From: Candidatus Babeliales bacterium | Lineage (GTDB): Bacteria; Babelota; Babeliae; Babelales; JBFXEV01 | Length of the DNA: 64,000 bases | Direction of reading: 5' to 3' | Assembly (NCBI GenBank): GCA_963716425.1 | Contig: OY970310.1 | Location: 1,798,807-1,862,806, forward strand | In this document: one piece after another, positions 38,103 to 45,377 of the stretch | How positions within the stretch are numbered: the first letter of the stretch is position 1 | Layout: each line of letters opens with the position of its first letter | Made by a program: the position numbers and the translations under genes | Notes under the pieces: generated by a model | The model's database searches: none | The model's input: the letters and a program-made list of their open reading frames with translations, nothing else | What the model was told of the DNA's origin: nothing

Positions 38103-38927
38103 ATGAAAAAATCTTTATTATATGGAATTCTCATCTTATTATTGGCCTCAATGGGCCAACAGGCTTTTGGTATGAAGAACTTTGCCAAGAAGGCTGCCAT
38201 TGGGTCTATAGGTTTAGGCTATGCCTATTTTGTGGGATCAGCCATAAATAACTGGTCTCTTCCAAAGAAAGGTGAAATTACCCTTAATGAAAAAACACAT
38301 GCGGACATACTAAACATTGTACATGAAGCTTATCCCGAATTAAAAAATCGTTTTATTAAGGTGGTCAATGTGCCGAAGTGGTCTTGGGCTACCAACTGGC
38401 GCTTGGATGCCGATTATATATATGCTCCCTATACTGACCAAGAATGGAAAGATGCTTACAATGACAATCAAAAGCAACCTTTGATTAAAGAGAGTATCTT
38501 GCATGAAGCATCACATATCTTATACCATGACAACAAAACAAACTTAGGTAAATTCCTACTACCACCACTCATGGCAGCTCAATTATATAAAACAAAAAAA
38601 TTCAGAGGCCCTATTGCACTATACATTGGCTATAGAGCACTTGAAACGCATCTTCTTAAACGTTGGCAAGAATATCGTGCAGACCAAGACGCAATAAAAC
38701 GTGCCCAAGATCCTAGAATACTGAGAGCTGCAAGCAAAGAAGCTGCTACAATCGCAGAAAATATACTTGAATTAGATTTTCTCCCACGTTTAATCATAAA
38801 TACGTTACTTCTTCTTGATCCACATCCTTCACCTAAAGCTCGTGCAAAATACTTTGCTGAAGCTGCACAAAAGCTTGAAGAAAAGCAAGCGCAAGAAAAA
38901 ATAAAAAATGGAGTAAGTCATGATTAA
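38103..38927 (+). CDS. membrane-anchored HExxH metallopeptidase, M48/HtpX-like, array copy 1
   Basis: 'MKKSLLYGILILLLASMGQQAFGMK'; 'LHEASHILYHD'; 'WQEYRADQDAIKRAQDP'; 'LLDPHPSPKARAKYFAEAAQKLEEKQAQ'. Start set at ATG 38103. Confidence 0.7.
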   Translation: MKKSLLYGILILLLASMGQQAFGMKNFAKKAAIGSIGLGYAYFVGSAINNWSLPKKGEITLNEKTHADILNIVHEAYPELKNRFIKVVNVPKWSWATNWRLDADYIYAPYTDQEWKDAYNDNQKQPLIKESILHEASHILYHDNKTNLGKFLLPPLMAAQLYKTKKFRGPIALYIGYRALETHLLKRWQEYRADQDAIKRAQDPRILRAASKEAATIAENILELDFLPRLIINTLLLLDPHPSPKARAKYFAEAAQKLEEKQAQEKIKNGVSHD

Positions 38928-40032
38928 AAAACAATCTATATTCTATGGACTTATATTCTTGATTTTAACTTCTATGGGCCAGCAAGCGCATGCTATGAAA
39001 TGGACCAAGCACCAATGGTCCAATGGCTTTAGAATTGGCATGAAAGGTCTTAACTACACTGGTGTAGGTTTATATTTTATAGGTTCTCTCAAGCAAAAAG
39101 AGGAACGTCAAAAAGACATGGTTACAGCGTTAAAAACCCGCAACGAGATTCTTGATATATTGGCTAAACTCGATGGAGATTACGCAGATCGCAATCTATC
39201 CAAAGAATCACAAGATAAAATTTTAAGGTTTATACGCCATGCATATCCTGAATTAGAAGACACAGAAATACAAATTATTGAAAATTCACCCCGTAGTTTT
39301 GGTACTTTCAATTGCAATAATGTGGTTTATTTGCTTGTGCCATTTAATGAACAAGAATTTCAAAAAGCTCTCTTGTGTAAAGAAAAAAATATACCAGGTT
39401 ATACTAGAAAAACTGCCAGTAATGAACGGTGGAAAGAAAGGCTCACATTGCCTCAATATATTAGTAAGTGTGAAATCACAGGGAAGGCTATGACCCAAAC
39501 CACTCTTGATCTATGGCAAGCAAGCATGTTACATGAAGCATCGCACATTTTACATAAAGATAATAACGATAGCAATAACCCTATGCCTTATTTGATGGTC
39601 CTTATTGGAACCGAAAAAATAAAAAAGCTTTTAGGCTTAGATACTTTCAAATGGTGTAAAAATCTGATCGCCAATAATCTCATTAGAGGTACAGGGTCTC
39701 TTATTTCACTACCAATTAAAATTGGAGCATGTGAGCTCTGTTTACTTGCCATTAAGTATTGGGATGAATACCGCGCGGATCAAGAAATGATGGAAAGAAC
39801 TCAAAATCCAAATTTACTAAAAGCAGCAATCTATCTTTTTGATAATTTTCCTAATAAAGCACCATCCACAACACTAGAAAAAAGAGATTACTACTTAGAT
39901 CCTCATCCAAACCTGAAAACTCGAGCAGCTTATTTTGCAAAGGGAACTCAAAAAATTGAAAATAAGCAACAAGAGACAATGGAGGCACTTGCTTATTATA
40001 TGTCCGGTGATGATATACCAAGGAAAGATTAA
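38920..40032 (+). CDS. M48/HtpX-like metallopeptidase, array copy 2
   Basis: 'LHEASHILHKD'; 'WDEYRADQEMMERTQNP'; 'YLDPHPNLKTRAAYFAKGTQKIENKQ'. 8-nt overlap with copy 1. Confidence 0.7.
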   Translation: MIKKQSIFYGLIFLILTSMGQQAHAMKWTKHQWSNGFRIGMKGLNYTGVGLYFIGSLKQKEERQKDMVTALKTRNEILDILAKLDGDYADRNLSKESQDKILRFIRHAYPELEDTEIQIIENSPRSFGTFNCNNVVYLLVPFNEQEFQKALLCKEKNIPGYTRKTASNERWKERLTLPQYISKCEITGKAMTQTTLDLWQASMLHEASHILHKDNNDSNNPMPYLMVLIGTEKIKKLLGLDTFKWCKNLIANNLIRGTGSLISLPIKIGACELCLLAIKYWDEYRADQEMMERTQNPNLLKAAIYLFDNFPNKAPSTTLEKRDYYLDPHPNLKTRAAYFAKGTQKIENKQQETMEALAYYMSGDDIPRKD

Positions 40033-40045
40033 CGGAGAGATACTA

Positions 40046-43155: not shown

Positions 43156-44193
43156 ATGAATAAGCAATCTTTAATTTACGGACTTATTTTCATTGCATGT
43201 ATCTTGCTAAGCCAAGAAGCTCTTGCCATGCATGGCTTTGGCTATAAAACAGCAAATACTTTTAGAATGAGTATGAAAACACTTAATTACGCGTGCCTTA
43301 TAGCTCTTCCTCATATCATTACGTATCAAACACAAAAAATACATCCAAGTCCAAATGTTGATCCTAATCTCAAAAAGCTTACACCAGAATCAGAAAAGCG
43401 TATTTTAGATACTCTTTATACAGGGTATCCAGAATTAAAAAGCCATGCGATTAACATTGTAAGAACTTCTCATGAAAACTTCGCTGCAGGCTGGCATAGC
43501 GGTATTCCCTATATCTACGTTGCAAGAAATTGTGATGATGCTGAATTAAAGCTTGCACAAAAATTTAAAAATCAAAACCTACAAAGATTCTCTCAAGAAG
43601 AAAATGAACGCCGTAGCAAAGTAGAAAAGCTCACTATCCCTCAGTTTATGGCAGAAGGAGAGCGACGAGGGTTTGCAATGACTCCCACGACTCATGATCT
43701 ATGGGCATGGAAAATCCTCCATGAAGGATCACATATTTTACATCGTGACAACACAACAATTAATGCTCTTACCAATATTTCTCCCTTTATTGCCCTCTAT
43801 ACAACAGAAAAAATAAAACAACGTTTAAACATACACATCCTTTCCACACGTCCTATTCTTGGTACACTTCTAAAAGGCGCTGGCTACGTCCCCTCATTTG
43901 GCCTAAAAGTATTGCTGACCTACGCGCTTCTGATATACCCATATAGATATTGGTGTGAGTATCGCGCTGATCAAGATGCAATACAACGCTCGCAAGATCC
44001 TGCATTATTACATGCAGCAGCAACTTGGTTTGGCAATATTCGCCAATCCGAATTTGAACATTTGCCAGTTCTTACAAAGATACTTCATTTTTATGATTAT
44101 GATGTACACCCGGCACATCAACGACGTGCGAAGTATCTTAAGAAAGCTGCAGAGAAGCTTGAAGAAAAACAAACTACATCTGCTCACCAATAA
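43156..44193 (+). CDS. M48/HtpX-like metallopeptidase, array copy 6
   Basis: 'LHEGSHILHRD'; 'WCEYRADQDAIQRSQDP'; 'YDVHPAHQRRAKYLKKAAEKLEEKQ'. Confidence 0.7.
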   Translation: MNKQSLIYGLIFIACILLSQEALAMHGFGYKTANTFRMSMKTLNYACLIALPHIITYQTQKIHPSPNVDPNLKKLTPESEKRILDTLYTGYPELKSHAINIVRTSHENFAAGWHSGIPYIYVARNCDDAELKLAQKFKNQNLQRFSQEENERRSKVEKLTIPQFMAEGERRGFAMTPTTHDLWAWKILHEGSHILHRDNTTINALTNISPFIALYTTEKIKQRLNIHILSTRPILGTLLKGAGYVPSFGLKVLLTYALLIYPYRYWCEYRADQDAIQRSQDPALLHAAATWFGNIRQSEFEHLPVLTKILHFYDYDVHPAHQRRAKYLKKAAEKLEEKQTTSAHQ

Positions 44194-44321
44194 AAAATAA
44201 TAGTATTTCTCTTTAAACTTATCACGCATAAACTTTAATTGTTTAATTCTTAAATCACACTATACTAACAGGATGCATCACCAATAAGAATTCTTTCCCT
44301 AGAGGAATACTTAAAAGCATC

Positions 44322-45377
44322 ATGTTAAAACAATTTGGCTTATATGGACTGCTCTGTTTACTTCTTTCTGGCATGAGCGAGCAAGCACTTGCTATGCACG
44401 GTGCATATGCCAATGCTTTTAGAATAGGCATGCAGACTCTTCACTACACAGGACTTGGATCATTTCCCTATATAGCAAATAAAGTATATCATCACGAGAG
44501 CATGGAGGGCGTACTAGAGAAATCTGAACGTCTTACTGATGAATCAGAAAAGTATATTTTAAACACCATGCATACAGCATATCCCGAGCTCAAAAATACA
44601 CCCATCAACATTATCAAAGGACCACTCTGGGCAACATGCTGCTGCAATGGCATTCATTATCTTCTTGTCCCTTGTGATGATGATGAATTACAAAAAGCTA
44701 TTGCCTATCATAAAGCAGGCGCCATCAAACGTACATTTAATAACTTTCTTTTAAATCTTTCAAACACTCCATACAAAAACCCTCAACTACATACTGCCAT
44801 CTGTGAGATACGCGGCAAAGCCATGTCTGCCACTACCCTCTCCGCATGGCATATAAGCATGTTGCATGAAGGATCTCACATCTTACATAATGATAGTCAA
44901 CATAGTGCTCTTCTTAAATATATGATTCCTGCAACGGTGCTCTATGGAACGTACAAAGCAAAAACAAGCTTAGGTCTCACCGTGCTACTTAAAAATCAGC
45001 CTGCCGATAACGTCTTGAGAGGACTAGGCTACATCGGCTCATTACCTCTTAAACTGATTGTGTCTTGCCTACTTTTACATGCTTGCAGATATTGGCATGA
45101 GTATCGCTCTGATCAAGATGCTATTAAACGCTCACAAAATCCTGCAGACCTCCATGCAAAGAGCACTCTTTTTGCACACCTCTCCTCAACGGATTCTTCT
45201 GCATCTTGCCAAATTAAGCACTTATGCAACAATTTGCATATACAACCTCTTTCTGAAACGCGTGCACAATTAGCTTCACTCTTAGATCCACATCCAACAA
45301 ATGCAACCCGCGCGTACTATTTTGCCAAAGCTGCACAAAGACTTGAAGAAAAACAAGCTCTTGCACATTGTGATTAA
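44322..45377 (+). CDS. M48/HtpX-like metallopeptidase, array copy 7
   Basis: 'LHEGSHILHND'; 'WHEYRSDQDAIKRSQNP'; 'LLDPHPTNATRAYYFAKAAQRLEEKQ'. Confidence 0.7.
   Translation: MLKQFGLYGLLCLLLSGMSEQALAMHGAYANAFRIGMQTLHYTGLGSFPYIANKVYHHESMEGVLEKSERLTDESEKYILNTMHTAYPELKNTPINIIKGPLWATCCCNGIHYLLVPCDDDELQKAIAYHKAGAIKRTFNNFLLNLSNTPYKNPQLHTAICEIRGKAMSATTLSAWHISMLHEGSHILHNDSQHSALLKYMIPATVLYGTYKAKTSLGLTVLLKNQPADNVLRGLGYIGSLPLKLIVSCLLLHACRYWHEYRSDQDAIKRSQNPADLHAKSTLFAHLSSTDSSASCQIKHLCNNLHIQPLSETRAQLASLLDPHPTNATRAYYFAKAAQRLEEKQALAHCD

Follow-up and report, generated by a model that had tools for sequence, protein, structure and literature searches.

A tandem array of seven divergent M48-type metallopeptidase paralogs in a Candidatus Babeliales bacterium

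Seven back-to-back open reading frames (ORFs) on the + strand, at positions 38103-45377 of a 64,000-nucleotide (nt) window from a Candidatus Babeliales bacterium (Babelota; GCA_963716425.1, contig OY970310.1, positions 1,798,807-1,862,806), encode paralogous proteins that share 33-61% amino acid (aa) identity in pairwise comparisons when aligned over their full length. Their catalytic core is that of an ordinary M48 peptidase. What appears to be new, judging from the sequences, is the combination of this core with a signal peptide but no convincing transmembrane (TM) helix, lipobox, or TPR domain, and with a conserved N-terminal helix, a YPEL domain, and a facultative module of ~50 aa. The genes are also amplified in tandem, in 3 to 7 copies, at a conserved locus in Babeliales. 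Literature searches turned up no account of any M48 array, nor of the sub-family itself. The explanation that we favor, and to which we give about an even chance, is that these proteins are exported, plug-latent M48 endopeptidases whose paralog classes divide a range of substrates.

The ORF coordinates (Table 1) bear out the seven + strand genes and the spacings reported in an initial annotation of this DNA, which run, from copy 1 to copy 7, -8, +13, +8, +9, +72, and +128 nt. A Shine-Dalgarno-like purine run precedes the ATG of every array gene (7/7). When the window ORFs were scanned with a profile hidden Markov model (HMM) of the family, the matches were exactly these seven, with no eighth copy detected by this model elsewhere in the 64 kb. 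An assembly artefact can be ruled out. At 33-61% identity the copies are too unlike one another to have been collapsed or duplicated in assembly, and an independent Logan assembly (L004, from ERR10755947) contains part of copy 5, copy 6, copy 7, and the metallo-beta-lactamase-fold (MBL-fold) gene that follows them, in identical order.

Relationship to peptidase family M48

Sequence motifs and profiles give good support for placing the family in the M48 clade. The Pfam profile PF01435 (Peptidase_M48) matched all seven copies, always over profile positions ~70-180 of 186, with 19.9, 17.5, 22.0, 33.6, 24.4, 18.0, and 15.9 bits for copies 1 to 7; three of these exceed the gathering score of 20.3 bits. 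By hhalign, an alignment of 33 family sequences matched Escherichia coli HtpX with 85% probability (E value of 5.8e-6), placing HEISHI in register with HEGSHI, REFHAD (E222/D226) with EYRADQ, and THPP...R with DPHP...R, and matching H3 and H4, hydrophobic regions of HtpX, to the pair of hydrophobic segments in the array proteins. A profile built from 15 members retrieved 199 proteins at an E value of ≤1e-3 from 1.84 billion representatives. The distant matches among them cover the C-terminal catalytic half only and score 42-67 bits on Pfam M48. The family profile had no meaningful match among PDB sequences; one distant relative, P0085, matched both Ste24p (5.5e-7) and the HtpX domain 3CQB (9e-4) there. 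Together, the Pfam, hhalign, and transitive profile matches agree with the initial annotation, which had read the genes as M48 paralogs with an HtpX-like order of motifs.

The array proteins are nevertheless not HtpX orthologs, since the NCBIfam HtpX equivalog models (NF002826, NF003425, and others) gave 11-17 bits (best scores of 11.6-16.5) against cut-offs of 341-412. Membership in M56, the family of BlaR1 and MecR1, was also rejected: none of the seven copies had a Pfam M56 match at an E value of ≤1, and the proteins stop about 25 residues past the HPx4R motif. No TPR domain match was found in the array proteins, and hhalign against BepA aligned only 15 columns, around the HExxH.

In the alignment of the seven copies, H-E-x-S-H-I, W-x-E-Y-x-x-D-Q, D-x-H-P...R-A-x-Y, and E-x-K-Q are invariant. 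The HExxH, which lies on a helix predicted by AlphaFold2 (AF2), is invariant also in 33 family members. It is followed 56-79 aa further on by the Glu of an ExxxD motif, the predicted third zinc ligand; neither this E nor the D varies. Over the 33 diverse family sequences, H, E, H, E, D, and R occupy invariant columns, and the H of HP is near-invariant. All seven array copies keep the catalytic and zinc-binding residues, as the initial annotation had concluded. Two details of the initial annotation need revision. It had spaced the downstream motif as "(D/V)HP-x5-RA," but the actual spacing is HP-x4-RA-x-Y (DPHP-x4-RA in the array copies, with the variant DVHP in copy 6), which is the HPX4R active-site plug motif defined for M48 (PMC7950410). 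The tail "AAQ(K/R)LEEKQ," assigned to every copy, occurs in that exact form in five of them; copy 2 reads GTQKIENKQ and copy 6 reads AAEKLEEKQ. In BepA, the counterparts H136, E137, H140, and E201 are the protein zinc ligands and the catalytic Glu, and H246 is the fourth ligand and serves as an autoinhibitory plug (PMC7950410). D205 and R252 form a latch, the breaking of which hyperactivates the enzyme (bioRxiv 10.64898/2026.07.01.735768). The invariance of the ligand, plug, and latch residues thus indicates that both the catalytic machinery and the M48 latency device are retained.

Structure models are consistent with M48 membership at the fold level. Copy 4 was modeled in full by AF2 with a predicted local distance difference test score (pLDDT) of 82.1. 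Because long-helix matches (pore-forming toxins and ABC transporters, template modeling scores of 0.1-0.3) swamped the Foldseek search with this model, the catalytic domain was modeled alone, using residues 84-310 of copy 3 (pLDDT of 94.2, predicted template modeling score of 0.88). The predicted order of elements is a backing helix, a three-stranded sheet, the active-site helix, a long helical hairpin, the Glu helix, two short helices, and a C-terminal helix. The only Foldseek matches of this domain with appreciable probability were the zinc-protease domain of BlaR1 (M56; probability of 0.91-0.97, TMq of 0.41), ZMPSTE24 (TMq of 0.43), and the minigluzincins selecase, proabylysin, and projannalysin (root mean square deviations of 3.5-4.7 Å over 75-82 residues), and all of these matches are weak, with E values of ≥0.05.

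Export signal, lid hairpin, and pre-HExxH module

The array proteins had initially been described as membrane-anchored, with a TM hairpin. Their N termini instead resemble signal peptides: all seven have a hydrophobic (h-) region of only 12-13 residues, a polar Gly-Gln-Glu/Gln stretch, and then a conserved Met-Lys/His, with a putative cleavage site that carries A/T at -3 and A/G at -1 (7/7 copies). In the copy 4 model, the pLDDT of residues 1-30 is below 60. A lipoprotein signal was considered and rejected, as there is no conserved lipobox Cys.

Hydrophobicity was summed on the Hessa biological scale over 19-residue windows (in kcal/mol), a crude measure that ignores residue position. The array proteins gave 2.0-6.3 for the N terminus, 5.5-12.3 for the post-signal segment, 6.6-13.8 for the first hairpin helix (hairpin-a), and 4.0-12.0 for the second (hairpin-b), which also holds a near-invariant Lys and two Pro. 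As controls, E. coli HtpX H1, H3, and H4 gave -2.4, 3.1, and 0.6; the ABC permeases encoded in the window gave -1.1 to 0.8 for clear TM helices and 3.5-4.7 for their weakest helices; and BepA gave 3.7 for its cleaved signal peptide and 4.3 for its soluble lid. The N-terminal sums are like that of the BepA signal peptide and unlike that of HtpX H1. The two hairpin segments of the array proteins are less hydrophobic than the HtpX and clear permease helices, and the hairpin of copy 1 is short by 23 residues. These two segments sit at exactly the position of the BepA alpha6-lid, which lies between the HExxH and the Glu helix and acts as a conditional membrane harpoon; homologous lids are reported in HtpX, LoiP, YcaL, Ste24, and OMA1 (bioRxiv 10.64898/2026.07.01.735768). 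From these sequence features, a cleavable Sec signal peptide with a lid-like, non-spanning hairpin seems more likely than an anchor with a TM hairpin, and the whole enzyme would then lie outside the cytoplasm.

The segment before the HExxH (residues 131-178 in copy 4 numbering) is 14, 51, 10, 48, 51, 51, and 52 residues long in copies 1 to 7. It had been described as a hypervariable insert of unrelated-looking residues. Where it is present, however, it is 48-52 aa long, alignable (…LT[IL]P[QE][YF]I…E..G.AMT..TL..W), and 34% identical between copies. That figure cannot be told apart from those for the N-helix (35%), sheet domain (37%), and hairpin-b (38%) and is above those for hairpin-a (27%) and the post-Glu segment (25%; 31-49 residues). 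We therefore read it as a homologous module of ~50 aa that varies by presence and absence, not as a diversifying loop. The module is missing from copies 1 and 3 and from the ortholog of copy 3 in a related locus, L002; in copy 1, the shortest of the seven, 23 aa of its lid hairpin are absent as well. The AF2 confidence across the module is lower (48-75), as would fit a flexible cap close to the cleft.

Relatives, evolution, and genomic setting

Among 5.8 billion clustered proteins, only 13 proved to be related to copy 4. Five of these are the window's own copies, and the named close relatives all come from Candidatus Babeliales metagenome-assembled genomes (MAGs). A scan of genome contigs gave the L001 genome alone, and a metagenome scan for the family yielded one short fragment. 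The family appears nearly restricted to Babeliales MAGs, in line with the lineage-specific character first proposed for it. In relatives, the array occupies a conserved locus downstream of ArgR, substrate-binding protein (SBP), permease, ATPase, and 243-aa hypothetical genes, and its copy number varies (Table 1). Genes of the Exo_endo_phos, RING-finger-like, and ankyrin types lie near the three clustered copies of the more distant L014.

In a neighbor-joining tree of the copies from the window (W), L001 (A), and L002 (B), the groups are W2/A2; W3/B3 and then W4; W5/A1/B2; and W6/A3/B1/B4, with W1 and W7 alone. This grouping across genomes implies that several paralog classes arose before the species diverged. 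Copy 2 has its ortholog in copy 2 of L001 (55% identity) and copy 3 in copy 3 of L002 (72%); copy 4 is the nearest paralog of copy 3 (61%). W3/W4 and B1/B4 are younger duplications.

W3/B3 is the sole pair with an unsaturated synonymous divergence (dS), at 0.61, and gives a ratio of nonsynonymous to synonymous divergence (dN/dS, omega) of 0.27. For most other paralog pairs dS is saturated (1.4-2.2), and dN/dS is unusable. Flanking genes of the same two genomes have a dS of 0.69-0.85 and an omega of 0.04 for the permease, 0.10 for the ATPase, 0.11 for ArgR, and 0.24 for the SBP; the dN of the proteases is 2-6 times that of the neighboring transport genes. By these estimates the proteases are under purifying selection, yet evolve faster than core transport genes.

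Two tracts of unusual similarity probably indicate gene conversion between array members. The 5' tract of copy 3 (40049-40215), which codes for the signal peptide and the first part of the mature protein, is 88% identical in nucleotides to 40993-41159 in copy 4; over the first ~40 codons the proportion of synonymous differences (pS) between these copies is 0.14, against 0.57-0.86 elsewhere. The 3' tract of copy 1 (38817-38908), which covers HPx4R and the tail, is 83% identical to 42985-43076 in copy 5, and over the last ~30 codons pS is 0.26, against 0.44-0.86 elsewhere. Part of the striking conservation of signal peptide and tail thus probably reflects conversion.

A strong terminator-like hairpin stands between the upstream genes and the array. 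A promoter-like site lies ahead of copy 1 and is a consensus match only; promoter-like sites in the region are as numerous as expected from shuffled sequence, with no enrichment. Copies 1-5 are packed tightly enough (-8 to +13 nt) for a single operon. The spacers before copies 6 and 7 hold TATACT-like hexamers, which fall under the scan threshold, and internal promoters there are a conjecture.

Between the importer genes and the array lies a gene for a small helical protein, with no Pfam match for the protein. Homologs of 117-144 aa adjoin the array upstream in relatives, and in L008 the homolog sits between two copies. This neighbor may act with or on the proteases, as a partner, an inhibitor, or a chaperone. 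Further upstream are two paralogous amino acid ABC importer operons of SBP_bac_3, permease, and ATPase genes, 2.5 kb apart, the second preceded by an ArgR gene, with ankyrin-repeat genes beside and between them; this importer and ankyrin layout recurs in L001, L002, and L006. A 243-aa ORF with a CPCC motif, sharing 4 nt with the ABC ATPase gene at the stop codon of the latter, is an uncharacterized fourth gene of the ArgR-linked importer operon. It has no Pfam match and is kept in L001 and L002 at 47-56% identity, with an omega of about 0.2. Dependentiae (TM6) are described as reduced and host-dependent, without amino acid biosynthesis and with a type II secretion system (PMC4776705), and the ankyrin-repeat genes, the two importer operons, and ArgR fit this picture of a reduced, host-dependent bacterium.

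On the other side, the array is followed by the gene for the MBL-fold protein (Lactamase_B_2), which has a hydrophobic N-terminal segment and a promoter-like site of its own. This gene follows copy 7 in L004 too and is absent at this place from L001 and L002. Directly downstream of it are two tandem UPF0149 (PF03695) paralogs, another local duplication. An RPE65/carotenoid-oxygenase family gene (400 bits) lies near the array in L001 as well, and is an unexpected enzyme in a reduced host-dependent bacterium. Two DAO-family FAD oxidoreductase paralogs adjoin each other further on and are followed by an ORF of similar size. A tRNA scan found no tRNA genes in the window, and no Rfam family reached the gathering threshold there.

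Table 1. The protease array, its surroundings in the window, and array copies and neighbors in relatives (L numbers)
Feature	Position	Strand	Remarks
Copy 1	38103-38927	+	274 aa; HExxH codons 38502-38516; family HMM 275.7 bits
Copy 2	38920-40032	+	370 aa; 8-nt overlap with copy 1; HExxH codons 39532-39546
Copy 3	40046-40978	+	310 aa; no pre-HExxH module; HExxH codons 40511-40525
Copy 4	40987-42018	+	343 aa; HExxH codons 41551-41565
Copy 5	42028-43083	+	351 aa; HExxH codons 42580-42594
Copy 6	43156-44193	+	345 aa; 72-nt spacer before; HExxH codons 43720-43734
Copy 7	44322-45377	+	351 aa; 128-nt spacer before; HExxH codons 44865-44879
Ankyrin-repeat gene	27723-29447
Amino acid ABC importer operon	29754-31874	+	SBP_bac_3, permease, ATPase
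Ankyrin-repeat gene	31972-32796
Ankyrin-repeat gene	33304-33639
ArgR gene	33910-34383
Amino acid ABC importer operon	34386-36533	+	SBP_bac_3, permease, ATPase
Hypothetical ORF	36530-37261	+	243 aa
Small helical protein	37425-37778	+	117 aa; predicted signal peptide; Pro/Ala-rich tail
Terminator-like hairpin and T-run	37802-37822	+	8-bp stem with 5 GC pairs, then TTTTTTT
Promoter-like site	38023-38050	+	TTGCCA-16-TATACT; 10/12 consensus matches; 53 nt before copy 1
Promoter-like site of MBL-fold gene	45413-45441		TTGACA-17-TATGCT; upstream TG
MBL-fold gene	45462-46583	+
UPF0149 paralog	46627-47220	-
UPF0149 paralog	47236-47859	-
RPE65/carotenoid-oxygenase family gene	49068-50672	-
DAO-family FAD oxidoreductase	51995-53122	+
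DAO-family FAD oxidoreductase	53125-54180	+
ORF of similar size	54198-55325
L001			3 array copies
L001, small helical protein homolog	9352-9786
L001, RPE65/carotenoid-oxygenase family gene	15330-16955
L002			4 array copies
L002, fifth copy	13486-14472		1.5 kb on, beyond a HIT-family gene
L006			Several fragmented copies; error-prone assembly
L006, small helical protein homolog	8374-8730
L008			At least 2 array copies
L008, small helical protein homolog	3399-3764
L011/L012, more distant member			1 copy, flanked by a 638-aa hypothetical ORF and a class A penicillin-binding protein (PBP) gene; murG lies just outside
L013, more distant member			2 copies, tandem
L014, more distant member	2726-3616	-	One of 3 clustered copies
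L014, more distant member	4399-5286	-	One of 3 clustered copies
L014, more distant member	6683-7699	+	One of 3 clustered copies

Possible function of the array

M48 enzymes are membrane-bound or lipid-anchored quality-control enzymes, with BepA as the only soluble example (bioRxiv 10.64898/2026.07.01.735768). The initial annotation had set the array against an HtpX that is normally single-copy. This contrast was overdrawn, as E. coli has four M48 paralogs, HtpX, YcaL, LoiP, and BepA (PMC7950410), and for Chromulinavorax, a Dependentiae isolate, M48 peptidases that are secreted have been listed (PMC6561590). E. coli HtpX (MEROPS M48B) shares with the array proteins the HExxH helix, two hydrophobic helices, ExxxD, and HPx4R, all in register. 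It has, however, a strongly hydrophobic N-terminal TM pair that they lack, and their equivalents of H3 and H4 are far less hydrophobic. Its catalytic domain is cytoplasmic, whereas theirs, given the signal-peptide-like N terminus, is probably extracytoplasmic. They also differ from HtpX in an extra conserved N-terminal helix and YPEL domain and in being encoded by a tandem multicopy array instead of a single gene. BepA resembles the predicted array proteins in its export by a signal peptide, its moderately hydrophobic lid (Hessa sum of 4.3 versus 4-14), its HPx4R plug, and its Asp-Arg latch. In contrast to them, it has a TPR domain, its lid is a flexible loop where the AF2 model of the array protein has a structured two-helix hairpin, and it is linked to BAM, the machinery for beta-barrel assembly, a link not known for the array proteins; sequence likeness is confined to the HExxH.

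Less closely, BlaR1/MecR1 (M56) and archaeal minigluzincins share a minimal gluzincin core with the array model, in weak matches (E values of ≥0.05), and the sensor domain and TM bundle of BlaR1/MecR1 are absent from the array proteins. In organization, the array recalls splA-F of Staphylococcus aureus, six tandem secreted protease paralogs in a head-to-tail operon with strain-variable copy number, which are thought to have distinct substrates (PMC8765433, PMC5061998). The Spl proteins are S1 serine proteases from a bacterium of another phylum and lifestyle, and this resemblance is organizational, not one of homology. M48 peptidases with predicted signal peptides in Chromulinavorax destructans have been read as host-degrading at the annotation level, with no tandem array or paralog classes described (PMC6561590).

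In the explanation that we favor, the array would be a tandemly duplicated, partly co-transcribed set from a divergent, Babeliales-restricted branch of M48. A Sec-type signal peptide would be cleaved, and the whole enzyme placed outside the cytoplasm. Its predicted core is a gluzincin of the HtpX/BepA type, with a backing helix, three-stranded sheet, HExxH helix, hairpin, Glu helix, and plug; the long helical hairpin of moderate hydrophobicity, a homolog of HtpX H3/H4, would be the equivalent of the BepA alpha6-lid. By analogy with BepA, the enzyme would be latent, with the plug His at the fourth zinc position gripped by the invariant Asp-Arg latch. Docking of the hydrophobic lid on a membrane or a substrate, perhaps with help from the conserved N-helix, would release the plug and activate the enzyme, and the paralog classes would split the substrates among themselves. 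Diversified substrate recognition for host-directed or envelope-directed use, as suggested in the initial annotation, is compatible with the data. We consider host-derived or host-facing substrates, for digestion or manipulation, more likely than the bacterium's own envelope proteins, because copy number varies among close relatives, the bacterium is an auxotrophic parasite, and Dependentiae are rich in hydrolases bearing signal peptides, M48 peptidases included (PMC6561590).

Several observations weigh against this explanation. Four of the seven copies fall under the Pfam gathering score (15.9-19.9 versus 20.3 bits), and neither the full-length copy 4 model nor the copy 3 catalytic domain had a Foldseek match in the PDB at an E value of ≤1e-3. 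Sequence alignment favors the membrane-integral HtpX over the soluble BepA. The Hessa sums are blind to where a residue sits in the segment, and the weakest permease helices (3.5-4.7) overlap hairpin-b of copies 2, 4, 6, and 7. Lys residues at +2 and +5 past the putative cleavage site are unfavorable for Sec export in E. coli. The synteny with ABC importers extends to fairly close relatives only, and the location of the single L011 copy, between murG and a gene for a class A PBP, gives a hint that the ancestral gene served the envelope. Secretion past the periplasm and a host target are predictions.

In a related possibility, unlikely but the most serious of the alternatives, the proteins are exported envelope quality-control or biogenesis proteases that act, like BepA, YcaL, and LoiP, on the cell's own membrane proteins and have multiplied to serve many or unusual envelope proteins. 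Each of the four characterized E. coli M48 enzymes works in the quality control of membrane proteins (PMC7950410), plug, latch, and lid have all been kept, selection is purifying, and the single-copy distant member (L011/L012) lies in the murG and PBP setting just mentioned. Yet copy numbers of 3, at least 5, and 7 in close relatives, together with recent duplications, are atypical of housekeeping quality-control genes; the dN is 2-6 times that of the neighboring transport genes; seven copies are costly for a reduced genome of 1.87 Mb; and neither a TPR domain nor a lipobox is present for routing to BAM or the outer membrane. The proteins might also be integral inner-membrane proteases of the HtpX type, with an uncleaved anchor and two spanning segments, that degrade misfolded membrane proteins. 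HtpX is their best sequence relative of known function, with H3/H4 aligned to the hairpin, BlaR1 and ZMPSTE24, which gave the best fold matches, are membrane-integral enzymes, and the Lys-rich loop between the hairpin segments would suit a cytoplasmic loop. We regard this as improbable in view of the Hessa sums of both hairpin helices (6.6-13.8 and 4.0-12.0, versus -2.4 to 3.1 for HtpX H1/H3/H4), the conserved Lys and two Pro within hairpin-b, the truncated hairpin of copy 1, the short h-region followed by an AxA-type site, and the scores on the HtpX equivalog models, which lie far below their cut-offs.

There are two further possibilities. One, a long shot, is a battery of secreted "de-membranized HtpX" enzymes, in which the N-helix and the lid hairpin would harpoon the membrane of a host vacuole or organelle and each paralog, unlatched there, would cut different host membrane proteins; if true, the array would encode effector proteases licensed by a membrane, a family for which no counterpart has been described. 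The other, which we think very improbable, is that the copies are non-catalytic or decaying, either duplicates drifting toward pseudogenes or binding proteins that keep the fold. The four scores under the Pfam threshold, the internal truncation of copy 1, and an omega above that of the neighboring genes would be in keeping with decay. All seven reading frames are nonetheless intact and have ribosome-binding sites, every copy has the same ligand, latch, and plug residues (and H, E, H, E, D, and R do not vary across 33 members), orthologs are kept across genomes, and omega is about 0.2-0.3, not about 1.

Taken together, the array points to an apparent second M48 lineage with a signal peptide and no clear anchor, in which plug, latch, and lid have been kept, and this in an obligately host-dependent phylum with almost no experimental genetics. 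If these proteins serve envelope housekeeping only, the array would be a lineage-specific gene-family expansion of limited wider interest. If they are exported and have distinct specificities, as in the explanation we favor, they would be candidate host-interaction or nutrient-release factors of Dependentiae, and they would also offer a natural series for seeing how the lid and insert tune M48 activation.

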